DNA from: a virus
Lineage: Duplodnaviria > Caudoviricetes
Reading direction: 5' to 3' (one strand)
DNA: 24,395 bases
Virus record (IMG/VR): IMGVR_UViG_3300020182_000188
Coordinates: 1 to 24,395 of that record
Position 1 is the first letter of the stretch. Each line of letters begins with the position of its first letter. The position numbers and the translations under genes were made by a program. Below the pieces are notes generated by a model, which ran no database searches, was not told where the DNA came from, and was given only the letters and a program-made list of their open reading frames with translations. Shown one piece after another: positions 1,358-24,126 of the stretch.

Positions 1358-1370
1358 AGTGTTTTGTTTT

Positions 1371-1391
1371 AAAGGGGGTTTTTACACCCCC
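1371..1391 (-). terminator. GC hairpin, possible weak terminator or processing stem
   Basis: Minus strand GGGGGT-GTAAAA-ACCCCC followed by only TTT; intergenic. Confidence 0.4.
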
Positions 1392-1543: not shown

Positions 1544-1554
1544 AATGTTTGTTT

Positions 1555-1698
1555 TTATTTTTTGATAATTTCTTCAATTGTTTCATCTAAGTCTCTAATC
1601 ATTGCGTAGTTGATTCCGCTTGGGTGCTTCTTGTGTAATTTCATTAAGTCTTTTCTTAAATTTGAAAGTTTGATTAGTTGTTCGTTTGTAATTTTCAT
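1555..1698 (-). CDS. Hypothetical 47-aa protein (not in ORF track)
   Basis: Translates as MKITNEQLIKLSNLRKDLMKLHKKHPSGINYAMIRDLDETIEEIIKK; first gene after the promoter at 1743-1784. Confidence 0.6.
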   Translation of the reverse strand: MKITNEQLIKLSNLRKDLMKLHKKHPSGINYAMIRDLDETIEEIIKK

Positions 1699-2447: not shown

Positions 2448-2587
2448 AATTCAATATCTATATCATTCCACGCTTTGCGCCGTTCATTACATCCACAATC
2501 TTTTCCTGTTAATAAACTCCATTTTTCTACTAGCCAATGAATACCAGTATAATAAGTGAAATTGTAAAATAAGTCTCCTAGTCTCAT
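2444..2587 (-). CDS. Hypothetical 47-aa protein with DCGC motif (not in ORF track)
   Basis: Translates as MRLGDLFYNFTYYTGIHWLVEKWSLLTGKDCGCNERRKAWNDIDIEL; ATGA overlaps at both ends. Confidence 0.75.
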   Translation of the reverse strand: MRLGDLFYNFTYYTGIHWLVEKWSLLTGKDCGCNERRKAWNDIDIEL

Positions 2588-3072
2588 AAATTTTTTTTTA
2601 TATGTTTTTTTGCGTTTACGTATGTATTGTATAGTGAATAATAGCTTATCTTTGTGTTCCTGCTTAGTTCGGCAACGCTCACACCCTTTGCAACGATCTC
2701 AAATATCTTTTTGTCATACCAATACATATCATTTAATATGCTGTCTATATGGTCACGCTGCTTTGCCCATTCAACTTCATCAATACCGCTTTCTTGTATT
2801 TCTTTAAGTTCGTTTATATCTTCTAAATAAACTTTCTTTTGTCTTAAACTAGCTTTGTATAAATTCGTGTAAATTCCCCTTAAAACTTTATAACAATAAT
2901 AGTGATTTATTTCATCATTATAGTATAGGTCTAAACCTTTTTTCACATCAGCATCAAGTTGTATGTACATTTCCATTACAACGTCCTCACTCATTGAGGG
3001 GTTGCAGCCGAAACTCTTTACGATATTATTCCAATCGTTATGTTTTTTATATGCGAGTTCAAGAATTTTCAT
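2584..3072 (-). CDS. Phage sigma-70/ECF-like RNA polymerase sigma factor
   Basis: Region-2-like SEDVVMEMYIQL and region-4 HTH (YDKKIFEI...GVSVAELSRNTKISYYSLYNTYVNAKKHIK); ECF-like size of 162 aa. Confidence 0.72.
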   Translation of the reverse strand: MKILELAYKKHNDWNNIVKSFGCNPSMSEDVVMEMYIQLDADVKKGLDLYYNDEINHYYCYKVLRGIYTNLYKASLRQKKVYLEDINELKEIQESGIDEVEWAKQRDHIDSILNDMYWYDKKIFEIVAKGVSVAELSRNTKISYYSLYNTYVNAKKHIKKNL

Positions 3073-3085
3073 TTATTTTTTTTAA

Positions 3086-3988
3086 TTAAAAAGGTGCTTT
3101 TATTTGTTCGTTTGGTTTGTTTGGTGTTAATGTTCTGGGTACAAAGTATTCTAATGGGTCGTATATCTCACCAACCACAAAAGGCAGCCCAAACTCGTTG
3201 ATACTAAAGCTGAACGTTTCAAAAGCGTAACCCCTAGAACGTTTGCAGCTTACTGTAATCCATTCCTTATTGACTGTATTTATTTCAAGTTGTATTTGGT
3301 TTTCTGTCTTTTTTTCTAAGAAACTACCCAAGTGTCCAGTTGGCTTATCGCTCCCGAAATTACTATGAATGACAGTTACTATATGACAATCATATTTTGC
3401 AGATAGTTGCATTATTTTTTGAACACATAGATTTGATTCTTCAAGATTATTGACGTCACTAACTAGATCAGCAATTCCATCAATTACAACCATACCATTT
3501 TTACCTTTGTTTTGTTCCAAACAATGCTCTATAAATTGTAATCGTTCTTTATATCCAATAGTTCTAAGAGCGTATGTGTGATAACAACCCACATCTTTAG
3601 TGTTTGCCATATCCTGAACCCTTCTAAACACCCTTTGAGCGTGCCACGAACCCTGCTCCGTATCAAAGTGCATTAAACACCGCCCTTCACGATGTCCTTT
3701 AATTTTACCGCCAAAGTTATTTCCACCACTTAAATAAACCGATGCTAATAAACTAACAAAGAAGGTCTTTTTTGATTTTGGGGGAGCTTGTACAAAGCTA
3801 AAATTTCCATAAGTTCCAATTGGAATCGGCATTGTGATATCACCGCCTTTGGCTTGTATGGTTTTTTCACCTAAACTTAAAGCCGTTGGGGGGTATTCCA
3901 TTACATCTTCAGTATCAATAGCGCATTCTTCTGCTATTAATTCCATCAGCATATTATGGGTTGTTTGTTCTTCTGTTATTTTTTCCAT
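3086..3988 (-). CDS. RecA-fold P-loop ATPase, probable replicative helicase (RepA/AAA_25/DnaB-like)
   Basis: Walker A-like APPKSKKT, FDTEQG, Walker B VVIDGIAD, and VIH.N...PTGHLGS.L.KK.E. Confidence 0.8.
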   Translation of the reverse strand: MEKITEEQTTHNMLMELIAEECAIDTEDVMEYPPTALSLGEKTIQAKGGDITMPIPIGTYGNFSFVQAPPKSKKTFFVSLLASVYLSGGNNFGGKIKGHREGRCLMHFDTEQGSWHAQRVFRRVQDMANTKDVGCYHTYALRTIGYKERLQFIEHCLEQNKGKNGMVVIDGIADLVSDVNNLEESNLCVQKIMQLSAKYDCHIVTVIHSNFGSDKPTGHLGSFLEKKTENQIQLEINTVNKEWITVSCKRSRGYAFETFSFSINEFGLPFVVGEIYDPLEYFVPRTLTPNKPNEQIKAPF

Positions 3989-4520: not shown

Positions 4521-4544
4521 AGTTTTTATTTTAATTGTTTACAG

Positions 4545-4973: not shown

Positions 4974-5108
4974 TTATTTGTTTTTGTTATTAATTTCGTT
5001 TTGTGATTCTAAAAATTCAACTCTTTTTTCTAGTGCTTTAATTCTAGCGTTTAAATAATCAATTGTATCGGTTGAAGCTGCCCTGTTTACGTCTTCTGAA
5101 TAAGTCAT
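4974..5108 (-). CDS. Hypothetical 44-aa coiled-coil protein (not in ORF track)
   Basis: Translates as MTYSEDVNRAASTDTIDYLNARIKALEKRVEFLESQNEINNKNK; exactly fills the gap between its neighbours. Confidence 0.7.
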   Translation of the reverse strand: MTYSEDVNRAASTDTIDYLNARIKALEKRVEFLESQNEINNKNK

Positions 5109-5109
5109 A

Positions 5110-5313
5110 TTAAAGCTCATTAAATAATTCGTATGGACTTTCGGTTGTTTCTAGTAAGAATCTTAAATCACTTACAACTCCATAGGGTAAATCTTTAACA
5201 TAAGAATATTCTTCTAAGCTATCAGTTATAAATCCAACTAATGCAGGAAATCTAAAATTTATTAAATCTAATCTTGTTTTGTACTCTGGTTTTAATCTTT
5301 GTAATAAATTCAT
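5110..5313 (-). CDS. Hypothetical protein (likely start ATG 5313, MNLLQRLKPEY...)
   Basis: The ORF-track start at 5361 lies within the promoter. ATG 5313 has the leader AAAACAATACATT. Confidence 0.7.
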   Translation of the reverse strand: MNLLQRLKPEYKTRLDLINFRFPALVGFITDSLEEYSYVKDLPYGVVSDLRFLLETTESPYELFNEL

Positions 5314-5338
5314 AATGTATTGTTTTAAATGTTCTATG

Positions 5339-5380
5339 CAAATATAAAACAAATAATTCAATAAAAAAAACTATTAACAA
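5339..5380 (-). promoter_or_regulatory. Early promoter (-7 box TATATTTG)
   Basis: TATATTTG at 5339-5346, just downstream of the terminator at 5399-5428. Confidence 0.65.
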
Positions 5381-5398: not shown

Positions 5399-5428
5399 AA
5401 AAAAAACCACCCTTTTACAGAGTGGCTT
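5399..5428 (-). terminator. Intrinsic terminator
   Basis: GCCACTC-TGTAAAA-GGGTGGT followed by T8. The G-U pairs form only on the minus strand, which fixes orientation. Confidence 0.8.
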
Positions 5429-5467
5429 AATTTGGTTATGACAACCATATTAAAACAAAAACAATAC
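5399..5467 (-). ncRNA. Candidate ~70-nt small RNA
   Basis: Bounded by a TATATTTG box (5472-5479) and the terminator. It has a U-rich 5' end and a small hairpin TGGTTG-TCA-TAACCA. Confidence 0.4.
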
Positions 5468-5471
5468 TTTA

Positions 5472-5479
5472 CAAATATA
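5472..5479 (-). promoter_or_regulatory. -7 promoter box directly after the NinG stop
   Basis: Exact TATATTTG, identical to the boxes at 1743, 4545 and 5339. No clear -33 TTTG. Confidence 0.5.
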
Positions 5480-5481
5480 CG

Positions 5482-5877
5482 TTAGTTGTCTAGTTGTTTA
5501 ATTAACATTTCATATTTTTCTATTAACATTTCTAAATCTGTGTTATCTAGCTTTACCGTTTTATTAGCTTCAATATGTAGTTCATCAGCTAAACCGTCAT
5601 AGTAAGTGTTATCTAAATTACGAGCGAATTTAAACTGCTCACCATATCTAAAAACGTTACACCCCGAACATTGTACCTGACAATTTACCTCGTGCCACCT
5701 TGTAGCGTAATGTTTACGGCTTTGAAAGTGTCCGTTTTGTAGTTTCTTCCAATGGTCTTGTTTACCACAAGTAAAGCATTCAGCTATATCATTATCGGCA
5801 TACCTGCGTCTTATATATATACTAAAAACCTTATCTAACTTATCTACTAGTTTTTTGCGTTGTGTTCTTTTTGCCAT
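5482..5877 (-). CDS. ninG: NinG/Rap-family recombination endonuclease (HNH-like)
   Basis: LDKVFSIYIRRR...CFTCG...GHFQSR...TRW.E.NC..QC..CN, the signature of the lambda NinG family. Confidence 0.88.
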   Translation of the reverse strand: MAKRTQRKKLVDKLDKVFSIYIRRRYADNDIAECFTCGKQDHWKKLQNGHFQSRKHYATRWHEVNCQVQCSGCNVFRYGEQFKFARNLDNTYYDGLADELHIEANKTVKLDNTDLEMLIEKYEMLIKQLDN

Positions 5878-5984: not shown

Positions 5985-6016
5985 CAAAGTTATATCTTTT
6001 ATTTAGAATAAACAAG
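5985..6016 (-). promoter_or_regulatory. Early promoter upstream of ninG
   Basis: CTTG (6013-6016), a 20-nt spacer, then TAACTTTG (5985-5992). Confidence 0.6.
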
Positions 6017-9231: not shown

Positions 9232-9728
9232 AAAACCCAACTGTTATAAACCGTGTCAGAATCTGGGCTTATATCTGAACCTGAATTGCTAGTGTATTCT
9301 GGAAACTTAGAGCTATTATCACAAAGGTAATCAACTAACCTAGTCGAATAATAACGAGCATACTCCCTAGCTTTACCGACTAAATAATCCACTTCTTCCT
9401 TAGAAACGTTTTCAGCTGTTTCGCTAGAATGTTTAAACACTCCTCCGTTCTTAATTTGATAAGTCGCGAATGGAATATAATTTACCTGAGCAAACCATAT
9501 AAGGGTTGACTGTATATAATCGCTTACAAGGGCTAAATAGTCGCCTGTTAAAGTGTCGTTTGTAATGTCGTCACTTATTCGGTTGTATAAATCCGTCCCT
9601 AGTAGGTTTTTGATATCAATTTCTTGTCCGAGCTTGATGAATTGTATAAATTTGTCCGTATCCACCGATCCGTCTAAGATTGAATTTCTTACTAAGTCCG
9701 TTCGTGATATAAATAATGCTGTTGCCAT
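9228..9728 (-). CDS. Putative head-tail adaptor/connector protein
   Basis: Helical 166-aa protein directly after the portal; function inferred from size and synteny. Confidence 0.6.
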   Translation of the reverse strand: MATALFISRTDLVRNSILDGSVDTDKFIQFIKLGQEIDIKNLLGTDLYNRISDDITNDTLTGDYLALVSDYIQSTLIWFAQVNYIPFATYQIKNGGVFKHSSETAENVSKEEVDYLVGKAREYARYYSTRLVDYLCDNSSKFPEYTSNSGSDISPDSDTVYNSWVL

Positions 9729-11540
9729 TTAGTTTTTAAATTTCATTTTGTTCCAATATTCAGCGGTATAACCTTTATACTTCATATCGTTTGGTGCTAC
9801 TGGTACTTTTTGGGCGTTTTTAGGTGCTTTAAAACCTTTGCTTTTAGCTTGACCACTTGTTATCTGGCTTTTTTTACCTTCTTTAATTTGATATGTTTTT
9901 CTAAACCATTTATGATTACATCTTGCACCTCCTTTATACAACCATATTGAATACGTATCAGAACCGCCTTTACCAAAACCGCTATTCACCGCCTTGTTTC
10001 CCATCGCTACGATGTCCTCTTTACGGTAAACCTTTTTAGCCCCTACCATTTTAGAACAAAACTTTCGACTATTTGCTCCCGCTTTTTCTGGTGCATAGCT
10101 ATATCTTACTAAAAATTCAACACCTTTTTGGCTATCTTGTTTTGATGTGCCGTCTTGTTTACTTTCGGCGTTTGGTTTTGCCGTTCCTGTGCTTACAAAA
10201 TTCCATATTTTAGATAATACAGATTGTTTAGGCTCGGTGTTTAAGTCTGTAATAACTTCGTCAAGTTCATCGTTCAACTCGTAATCAACCTCGCTTTCAT
10301 CTACTAAATCATATTCAGCTAGTAGTTCATCTTCTGTTTGCCCTAAGTCGATTAATTCATCAGCTATATTGCTACCTAATTCATCTGGTAAATCTTCGCT
10401 TAATTTAACCCCTGTTTCTTCTTCTTTTGTTTCTGCGTCCTCAACGTTTTTTAAATCTGTAAATTCTAACGGTTGAAGCGTTTTAAAGTACAATTTAAGG
10501 CTCATTTGATTAAATGCTAATATACTATCAAAAGCATCTATTAAAAGCATCTGGAACGGTCTTATAACGGTGTTATCCATTAATGTACTTGCAGTCTTTA
10601 ATTCTTCTGCATTGTTACCCAAACCGCTATTATCTTTAATACCTAAAAGCATAGGAGAAACAACTCTGTGTGATACCATTACTTTTTTAGAACTTTCATC
10701 AGAAAGAAATTGATACTGCATATGCGCTTCGCTTAATTGTATGGGCTCAATCGTTGCTGCACTTTCTGGATTGTCATTAAAAGCTAATATAAATTTGCCC
10801 GCATTACTTGAACCGCTAAACTTAGAGTATATACGGTTTTCTAAAGCTTGACGTTCTTCGGCGTTTGGTGTTCCATTGTTAAAGTTAATTAACATTGACG
10901 GAGCTAATCCGTTCAAGATATTGTTTAAATGGTAGTTACTTATCTCTTGCTCTAGTTCGGCATATTGTAAACCCCCTGCATAATCTGGACTTGAATAGTA
11001 CTTATACCCTGCCCGATAAGGTTTAACGTAAATAATCTCTATATTTTCCTTGCTGCTTCCAAATGCAGGAATTCTAGTTGTTTGATTTACGTTCTTAACC
11101 TTTGACCAATCATCCGAATAATAATATCCTTCAATCTCTCCTTTTTTGTTGCATTTTTCAGCTCTTAAATTTTCAATTGGAATGTGTTCTACTTGTGCGA
11201 TTGTTTTTCTATCCTTAGAATAAATGACTTGCATAGAACATTGACCCATTAATTTAAGGTCATAGCATAATTTACGAACCATATCTTTATGGAACAAAGA
11301 AATCATTTTAGCGTATTGTTCAGGCTTTTTATTTGAATTTAAAGCATCCAATCCACGACCATAAATCATTTCGCTAATACCGTTTATAATAGCGTTGTTT
11401 GTTGGGCTGCCATTGTAACGGTCAATTAAGTACTTAAAATAATTATTATCCGCACCATACGACACCCAATCTTTATTGGACTTCTCAACGATATCTGGCG
11501 TTGTGTAGGTACTTAAATTTACTATTCTTAAATCATTCAT
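9729..11540 (-). CDS. Portal protein with C-terminal extension
   Basis: YGADNNYF..L...YN.SPT..AII.G, NNI.NG.APS, F.GS.NAGKF, and H.V.SP.L.GI...GLG.NA.EL form a portal core of ~370 aa. An acidic linker and a Cys/His basic domain follow. Confidence 0.82.
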   Translation of the reverse strand: MNDLRIVNLSTYTTPDIVEKSNKDWVSYGADNNYFKYLIDRYNGSPTNNAIINGISEMIYGRGLDALNSNKKPEQYAKMISLFHKDMVRKLCYDLKLMGQCSMQVIYSKDRKTIAQVEHIPIENLRAEKCNKKGEIEGYYYSDDWSKVKNVNQTTRIPAFGSSKENIEIIYVKPYRAGYKYYSSPDYAGGLQYAELEQEISNYHLNNILNGLAPSMLINFNNGTPNAEERQALENRIYSKFSGSSNAGKFILAFNDNPESAATIEPIQLSEAHMQYQFLSDESSKKVMVSHRVVSPMLLGIKDNSGLGNNAEELKTASTLMDNTVIRPFQMLLIDAFDSILAFNQMSLKLYFKTLQPLEFTDLKNVEDAETKEEETGVKLSEDLPDELGSNIADELIDLGQTEDELLAEYDLVDESEVDYELNDELDEVITDLNTEPKQSVLSKIWNFVSTGTAKPNAESKQDGTSKQDSQKGVEFLVRYSYAPEKAGANSRKFCSKMVGAKKVYRKEDIVAMGNKAVNSGFGKGGSDTYSIWLYKGGARCNHKWFRKTYQIKEGKKSQITSGQAKSKGFKAPKNAQKVPVAPNDMKYKGYTAEYWNKMKFKN

Positions 11541-23263: not shown

Positions 23264-23739
23264 AAAAAAACCATCGCACCAAAACAAGCGTCCAAGGGAT
23301 AATCCTTAGCAGCTTCGTTTGAATCTGGATCGTAATCTTTTAGTGTATAACGTGCGCCTTGTTTTAAATCAATCGGTCTAAATAAAACATTCATCGCTCT
23401 GTGAAGGTTATCCGTGTCACCTATAAAGGTATCTAAATCCACATATTCACCAAAGCTTATATTTTCTAAGTCTGGTATAAAACCAAAGTCTTGACCACCT
23501 AACTGAAACCTATTTATCAACTGGTGTTCTACGTCAAACATTGTATTAATGACTTCGCAAATATCTTTGATGTCATTTGCTTTCATTGACCGAACAACCT
23601 CAATAGGCACTTTGCAGAATATCTCAACCATTTTCAAAAGAACATCGGATTCCTTTTTAGAATCTAATTTTGAAAACTCTTGGTACTGTCCTAATGTGAT
23701 TTCGTTTAGGGTTGTTGGTATCTGTATTTTTACTTCCAT
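23095..23739 (-). CDS. Putative tail assembly chaperone (G-like)
   Basis: IPT.L.EITLGQYQ...FGFIPDLE.ISFGEYVDLD; contains the slippery site ATG GTT TTT TTT TAC at codons 156-160. Confidence 0.6.
   Translation of the reverse strand: MEVKIQIPTTLNEITLGQYQEFSKLDSKKESDVLLKMVEIFCKVPIEVVRSMKANDIKDICEVINTMFDVEHQLINRFQLGGQDFGFIPDLENISFGEYVDLDTFIGDTDNLHRAMNVLFRPIDLKQGARYTLKDYDPDSNEAAKDYPLDACFGAMVFFYALGKDLSIAMLNSSSKQNEDNLAQYLGSLPNGDGTIQSMQSLTEILQDLKISLN
23260..23274 (-). promoter_or_regulatory. Slippery sequence (T9; heptamer T TTT TTT)
   Basis: Nine consecutive T on the minus strand (23262-23270), where the two overlapping ORFs share FF codons. Confidence 0.7.
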
Positions 23740-24042: not shown

Positions 24043-24126
24043 CTTGTTTGTTTTTATAGGCGTTAACCTATGTTATTGTTATTAATGAGTGTTTTTATTA
24101 TTAATTAGTGTTGTTTTTGTCCCCTA

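Follow-up and report, generated by a model that had tools for sequence, protein, structure and literature searches.

Bacteroidota initiate translation on A-rich leaders, with A at -3, -6, -12 and -13 in F. johnsoniae (PMC6847099), and two small RNAs (sRNAs) of Bacteroides thetaiotaomicron, GibS (PMC7366714) and FopS (PMC11697453), repress by covering the initiation region, as far as the accessible parts of these reports describe them. GibS is trans-encoded, has an AT-rich, unstructured 5' seed and is reported to act in a phylum that lacks Shine-Dalgarno pairing as well as Hfq and ProQ (PMC7366714). FopS (RF04319) is described as an RNA of about 70 nt with a housekeeping-sigma promoter and a single-stranded 5' seed followed by an intrinsic terminator, which prevents initiation on several mRNAs by binding beside their start codons; members of the family carry the R1 seed and bind an RRM protein of the RbpB type, and a copy in a Caudovirales phage is on record (PMC11697453). 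Among phage RNAs, c4 of P1/P7, sar of P22 and OOP of lambda repress genes of their own phage by pairing, according to the available sections of PMC8201110 and PMC12197685. Here we describe a unit in a phage record that has the layout of FopS, a predicted 5' seed that, like those of GibS and FopS, would cover initiation regions and, like c4, sar and OOP, targets that would belong to the phage itself. Judging from its sequence, we consider it probable that the unit encodes a trans-acting sRNA repressing tagged phage genes.

The window, that is the whole stretch of DNA analysed, is a virus record of 24,395 bases that is 76% complete and has nearly all of its genes on the minus strand. Along that strand the order is tail and head genes, portal, endolysin, holin, ninG (5877-5482), small genes, an AAA_25 protein, a sigma-like protein and an exonuclease. 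The capsid-like protein has four matches in 50,697 phage records, all to the Nonlabens phages P12024L/S at 30% identity. Because of this match, the TAnnTTTG boxes before small genes and the marine metagenome relatives, we infer a marine Flavobacteriales host for the record. A prophage search with the capsid-like protein among GTDB genomes returned two MAG contigs and no clear prophage, and neither an integrase nor a repressor was found among the 40 proteins of the record or the 56 non-structural proteins of two complete relatives, most small genes having no family; classical lysogeny control is thus not indicated. The sigma-factor-like protein (2584-3072) has no significant Pfam match, and its orthologues match PHROG 1740 (E 4e-6, 1e-3). 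In both complete relatives the terminase large subunit ORF, counted from the first ATG, encodes 319 aa (L107:17859-18818 and L114:12127-13086), and the 394-aa protein of L130 is longer than either.

The ninG/Rap-like gene (5482..5877, minus strand; PHROG 5034, E 2e-26) is followed, 2 nt past its stop, by a -7 promoter box, TATATTTG (5472..5479, minus strand), so that the upstream part of the predicted sRNA promoter lies within the 3' end of the gene. At the -33 position (5499..5501, minus strand), 19 nt before the box, the record has TTA. The box and its position are those of a host-type promoter, going by the accessible part of PMC9723704. If the 4-nt box-to-start spacing given for F. johnsoniae in the available part of PMC6847099 applies, the RNA would start at G5467 and would be 69 nt long (5399..5467, minus strand; both ends predicted), with a fold of -18.2 kcal/mol (z -3.5). 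It would consist of an open U-rich seed of 16 nt (5452..5467), whose positions 1-15 have an unpaired probability of about 0.8-0.9, a middle hairpin (5433..5447) and an intrinsic terminator (5399..5428; stem 5428-5404, U run to 5399) that is common to ninG transcripts. The first early gene has a separate -7 box (5339..5346, minus strand). Upstream of ninG there is a likely host-type promoter as well, with TAACTTTG at 5985-5992 on the minus strand and TTG 20 nt upstream; with this one counted, three tandem promoters fall within 650 nt.

The unit, a single promoter-seed-terminator copy in the record, has no Rfam match at the predicted sRNA, nor at the element in 10 relatives, and the one Rfam match in the record is a chance match to MIR8001 (28 bits against a cut-off of 90). 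Seven sequencing runs matched, five of them RNA runs with 5-8% of words, and among the contig pieces listed for four of these runs none lies over the predicted sRNA. An antisense gene or promoter on the plus strand was rejected, that strand having no TAnnTTTG box at the unit. A preliminary description of this DNA had reported a perfect box at 5472-5479 and a strong terminator about 70 nt away, and both are present. Its statement that no complete ORF lies between them needs correcting, since a 24-codon frame begins with an ATG at 5448 and extends across the terminator as far as 5374, and the U-richness that it took to be unusual is shared by 5396-5347 (30/50 T). ATGs in the seed are not conserved; an ATG occurs anywhere in 41/124 of the RNAs of related regions and in only 3/30 of those of the record's own clade, and a leader-peptide attenuator was rejected on these counts.

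The preliminary description had proposed that conservation be checked in related phages. Three ninG scans, one pattern scan and 40 genome stretches gave 268 loci with a full ninG end, corresponding to 126 distinct regions and, after removal of two poor matches, to 124, in which ninG is 53-100% identical. The architecture of box, U-rich stretch and hairpin plus U run is found in 124/124 of these post-ninG regions, with the box, under a permissive pattern, always 1-11 nt past the ninG stop (exact TAnnTTTG in 101, near variants in 23) and a predicted RNA of 48-91 nt (median 60). TTG stands 18-21 nt before the box in 81/124, compared with 0-10/124 at five control shifts, and its spacing is kept at 19-20 nt in 76 of these 81 although the distance from box to stop varies (2-11 nt). 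The record's own clade lacks this TTG (0/30), which is a point against a promoter of its own. The 16-nt seed does not vary among the 30 distinct regions whose ninG is 87% identical or more, one of which came in through the seed pattern itself, and the preceding 4 nt take 11 forms. The middle hairpin is variable in sequence with its pairing kept in these 30 regions, stems among relatives being GGTT/AACC, GGCT/AGCC, GACTG/CAGTC and AGCTA/TAGCT; it occurs in seed classes A, B and D of the classification given below and is missing from most others. In L002 and L081 longer hairpins replace the middle part of the RNA after ninG, with promoter and seed unchanged. In the terminator 99.4% of 160 cells are paired over 20 sequences, one pair showing a two-sided change. 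A strict terminator test was passed by 100/124 regions, the misses coming mostly from cutting inside the hairpin; a lenient one was passed by 124/124 but also by 56/124 control stretches and carries little weight.

These data bear directly on a second reading, in which the seed acts while carried at the 3' end of transcripts of ninG or the late lysis genes, be they whole or processed, and would thus appear late and bring about an early-to-late switch of the tagged genes. The terminator does also end ninG, downstream of the lysis genes on the same strand, the -33 position in the record's clade is TTA and not TTG, and two relatives (G026 and G030) have a second U-rich 3' end with a terminator and no box. 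This reading is nevertheless unlikely, given a box in all 124 regions, the -33 spacing described above, and a unit in P12024L that has its own box more than 30 nt from the holin stop. The second U-rich stretch and terminator in the two relatives (L115 about 9515-9575 in G026; L141 in G030) lie where the small-gene cluster ends and the tail genes follow, and possibly represent a second RNA of the 3'-UTR type.

Returning to an sRNA with its own promoter, the preliminary description had listed five complementary leaders, and all five complementarities are found where it placed them. The predicted sites, all on the minus strand, include a 10-nt perfect match, AAAACAATAC, at 5317..5326 before the gene 5313-5110 (67 aa; -12.6 kcal/mol), 11-nt perfect matches at 4978..4988 before gene 4972-4586 (AACAAAAACAA; -11.5 kcal/mol) and at 1362..1372 before gene 1357-1172 (TTAAAACAAAA; -12.3 kcal/mol), and an 8-nt perfect core, AAAAACAA, at 1549..1556 before gene 1543-1406 (-11.3 kcal/mol). 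The fifth leader, that of gene 24042-23836, is a weak candidate, its 8-nt match at 24048..24055 (AAAAACAA) giving only -6.2 kcal/mol with the whole RNA, and a good site that had not been listed lies at 4522..4534 before gene 4520-4362 (-11.1 kcal/mol including G-U pairs), a gene that has its own TATATTTG box at 4552-4545. AAAACAATAC, AACAAAAACAA and TTAAAACAAAA each occur once on the minus strand, and AAAAACAA occurs 12 times, three of these within leaders. When the whole RNA was compared with 19 leaders of our choosing, the top five were those of 5313, 1357, 4972, 1543 and 4520 (-12.6 to -11.1 kcal/mol), followed by that of gene 21997 in the structural region (-9.7). Among 16 non-structural leaders the best three have a mean duplex energy of -12.2 kcal/mol, compared with -7.8 +- 1.3 for 2000 shuffled seeds, of which five paired as well as the real one, and with -8.6 for the best three of 24 late-region leaders; none of 173 other U-rich 22-mers of the strand did as well as the seed. 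The pairing thus beats the shuffled controls against which the preliminary description had asked that it be judged, while perfect-run length alone gives a p of only 0.02-0.03 and duplexes of -11 to -13 kcal/mol at 37 C are modest, which counts against an sRNA. The site before gene 1357 lies directly 3' of a G/C hairpin (1392-1373), and leaders of hairpin plus tag occur with other tags in classes C and D. Such a GGGG-loop-CCCC hairpin adjoins the tag in leaders of internal small genes (1373-1392 here, and in L141, L114, L280, L158 and L198), and may be a processing site or a 5' stabiliser that creates a standard leader.

Further evidence comes from lineages in which the seed differs. The RNAs were sorted into 17 seed classes, of which two had too little flank and were excluded, leaving 15 classes represented by 50 loci, each with a different seed and 4 kb or more of downstream sequence; the seed windows of F and K, in which a hairpin comes first, were set by hand after the sequences had been seen. 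The pairing of each seed with the leaders (-22..+3) of each locus was computed, and the matrix was double-centred. The class diagonal was -1.85, against -0.02 +- 0.32 in 100,000 permutations. The cognate RNA ranked first of 15 in 10 classes and second, third and fifth (E) in three, and the test failed in two of the 15 (K, rank 9; E2, rank 14). Control windows gave no signal (-47..-22, p 0.16; +40..+65, p 0.45), and a slight one at +3..+28 (p 0.006) is confounded by protein conservation and was left uncounted. The first codons of the AAA_25 protein (3086-3988; family 6) often match the seed of the lineage, K-L-T for example occurring only in class D, an observation that conservation confounds as well.

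Counts of individual tags point in the same direction. Eight 8-mer tags were picked by us from the seeds after the sequences had been seen. The cognate 8-mer occurs in 60/1086 leaders of 48 loci and the seven non-cognate ones in 15/7602 tests, the loci inside a class being related and the counts therefore not independent; five of the 15 are the class A tag in class B leaders, which counts against strict co-change. The class C tag is present in 29/471 C leaders, in 17 protein families, and in 0/615 others, and the cognate tag is borne by 6 distinct families in E, 5 in B, 3 each in A and D, one each in F and G and none in H. The tag of the gene at 5313 varies along with the seed in classes A, B and F. 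Gene family 18 carries AACAATAC in A, AACAAAGA in B and ATGATAAC in F, and gene family 9 carries C, D and E tags, each fitting its own seed. In a five-protein tree (51 rows) seeds of classes D, E and G/H fall within C and those of A within B, with F apart; this points to at least five seed switches, with the support of deep nodes in this tree being low (0.16-0.69).

Could these results come from a lock acting in cis only, in which a read-through transcript folds the seed onto the first early leader 140 nt downstream in the manner of an attenuator? The strongest cognate signal does come from the first gene (diagonal -3.10 for this gene alone, p 2e-5). However, the distal genes alone, with the neighbouring gene left out, still give a diagonal of -1.47 (p 2e-5, the lowest value that 50,000 permutations can give), tags are found up to 11-12 kb from the unit, the first gene's own promoter sits past the terminator, and many E and C3 loci have no tag on the first gene. 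We regard such a lock as very improbable and return to an RNA acting in trans.

In that case the predicted 69-nt RNA would pair with a tag that ends a few bases upstream of the start in some four to five small phage genes, mostly promoter-proximal, and by covering the tag would be likely to block ribosome loading. Pairing over -3 to -14 would hide the A residues that promote initiation, as these determinants are given in the accessible part of PMC6847099. The same position could suit an RNA that pairs with the tags and activates or stabilises, as an adaptor or by protecting the 5' end, and so favours the tagged genes: the tag overlaps the region of Shine-Dalgarno pairing in other bacteria, and the tagged genes could plausibly be early genes of high expression. 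An activating role seems to us a very long shot, as the pairing would reach to 2-3 nt from the AUG, over A residues that are positive determinants (PMC6847099, in the part available), and as GibS and FopS are described as repressing from the same position (PMC7366714, PMC11697453).

All 60 tags end 1-7 nt before the ATG, 43 of them at 2-3 nt, and only seven cognate 8-mers lie between -8 and -60. The distance from box to tag ranges over 3-29 nt, and 25 of the 60 have no box within 45 nt. The tag distance is fixed to the ATG and not to the promoter box, and this favours a site at the RNA level over an operator. If the tag were instead bound as DNA by a regulator of the phage, and repeated in inverted form at the post-ninG promoter, this could account for the 35/60 tags just downstream of promoter boxes. 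At the one-mismatch sites of class C, a count made to look for G-U wobble gave C>T 15, G>A 7, C>A 8 and A>G 4, which points neither way. To the DNA-site reading we give hardly any credence, given the anchoring to the ATG, an orientation that never varies (sense in leaders, antisense in the unit), and the lack of a repressor-like protein among the 56 non-structural proteins of the two complete relatives. Chance similarity of a U-rich 3' UTR to A-rich leaders in an AT-rich genome, for which it can be said that any U-rich oligomer pairs with such leaders at about -8 kcal/mol and that the run-length result in the record alone is modest, is largely refuted by the cognate versus non-cognate test, with lineage-specific G and C letters matching, an invariant seed between variable flanks and a signal limited to the initiation region, and is as improbable as the operator. 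The multi-target antisense sRNA of the preliminary description is thus well supported as a prediction by the conserved promoter and seed, the co-change of seed and leaders and the anchoring to start codons.

A wider claim of the same description, that of a global early-to-late switch, is unsupported. Of 24 downstream genes, a median of 4 (range 0-10) reach a pairing energy of -10 kcal/mol or better, as do 31% of 231 promoter-proximal genes and 12% of 935 others, and the families of the sigma-like protein, the exonuclease and the conserved ~100-aa protein are untagged (4%, 0% and 2%). The sRNA promoter is, moreover, of the same host-type class as the early promoters. The associated claim that late genes would be immune fits the rarity of structural genes among predicted targets: in 10 genomes 11/200 structural or lysis genes pass the threshold of -10 kcal/mol, compared with 57/299 others (Fisher p 8e-6), and among structural genes with a late-type motif adjoining the ATG there are 0/42. 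This motif (ACAAA, about 14 nt, CGTTATA or TTTATATA, 3-5 nt, ATG) precedes structural-gene starts by 3-5 nt in all nine of nine genomes, with record ATGs at 23739, 15794, 14139 and 11893 on the minus strand, and we take it to resemble an ECF-sigma promoter. Its spacing is the sole ground for the leaderless part of the claim, and makes it plausible that late mRNAs are leaderless and driven by the phage sigma-like protein.

Since the sRNA and early promoters share the host type, delayed negative feedback on a subset of immediate-early genes is the simplest circuit. As we infer its effect and timing, the RNA would be a repressor made from the host-type promoter from the start of infection and would then build up, so that the tagged immediate-early proteins, probably of host takeover, would be made as a short pulse. 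Later, read-through from the lysis genes and ninG could add further seed through the shared 3' end, and the core replication and structural genes, mostly untagged, would be spared.

In phages P1 and P7, sequence changes in the c4 RNA and its target define immunity groups (heteroimmunity). It is possible, and we offer this tentatively as less likely than the sRNA itself, that seed and tag here form an RNA address code defining exclusion groups, in which the resident sRNA silences the tagged immediate-early genes of a superinfecting phage with the same code. Why a purely internal timer should change its code again and again is not obvious, and it is this that points to exclusion and suggests that lineages escape it by changing seed and tags together. 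If so, phages in which no integrase was found would have a repressor-free, RNA-only form of superinfection immunity or carrier-state control, and the code switches, at least five in number, would be explained. It predicts exclusion between related marine phages, which can be tested, the cultured P12024L/S having a similar unit.

In these two Nonlabens phages a promoter-U-rich-terminator unit follows the holin (P12024L, L284:9826-9897, with the box at 9826 of NC_018272; P12024S, L299:10174) and is the same in both, with perfect runs of 12, 11 and 9 nt to promoter-proximal leaders. In P12024L the run length beats 299/300 shuffles and the energy test is not above shuffles (p 0.67); a second covariation series was not obtained from relatives of its holin. 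Polaribacter phage P12002L has such a unit after a tail gene (L285:14222-14325), the 5' part of which mirrors the A-run-plus-ATG starts of many early genes, with pairing not above shuffles (p 0.67, 0.24). Further units beside a holin were reached through that of P12024L (L289:10712, plus strand; L290:10561, L291:9953 and L292:9335, minus strand), some on the opposite strand, and the one in L290 reads as the reverse complement of a leader and start codon.

The unit shares with known trans-acting sRNAs its own promoter and terminator (without the -33 TTG in the record's clade), the lack of a conserved ORF, and a conserved seed predicted to be accessible and complementary to initiation regions of unlinked mRNAs. 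No description of it was found in the literature searched, which consisted mostly of main texts available without subscription. A match to GibS was not found by sequence, and Rfam C4 had none in the record at E<=1 or in 10 related loci at E<=5. RF04319 gave none in the record at E<=10 and none above the gathering cut-off of 56 bits in five genomes, with four weak matches elsewhere in two relatives (7.5-15.7 bits). The open 5' stretch followed by an intrinsic terminator is a FopS trait present here, and by its predicted features the unit would work like FopS and GibS but is not a FopS member. FopS is reported to have 12-15 paralogues aimed at host susC (PMC11697453, accessible part), whereas here there is one copy aimed at the phage's own genes, with a seed that, unlike that of FopS, varies between lineages along with its targets. 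GibS is described as a host metabolic regulator with two seeds over 30-50 nt (PMC7366714, accessible part), compared with one seed of about 16 nt and a dedicated phage-gene tag. The c4, sar and OOP RNAs act on one operon, are mostly cis-encoded and belong to temperate phages, going by the available sections of PMC8201110 and PMC12197685, while the tag here is shared by several scattered genes; the latter review, in those sections, mentions neither an RNA of a Bacteroidota phage nor a multi-gene tag by which a phage targets itself. If the prediction holds, small unannotated early genes gain a shared regulatory label, and the natural orthogonal pairs of seed and tag could serve to study, and to use, control of translation without Shine-Dalgarno pairing in Bacteroidota. 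Most known phage sRNAs either regulate a single operon in cis or target host genes via Hfq; here, apparently, one RNA would govern a regulon of the phage's own scattered genes, and the co-evolution of seed and targets can be read from the genomes themselves.
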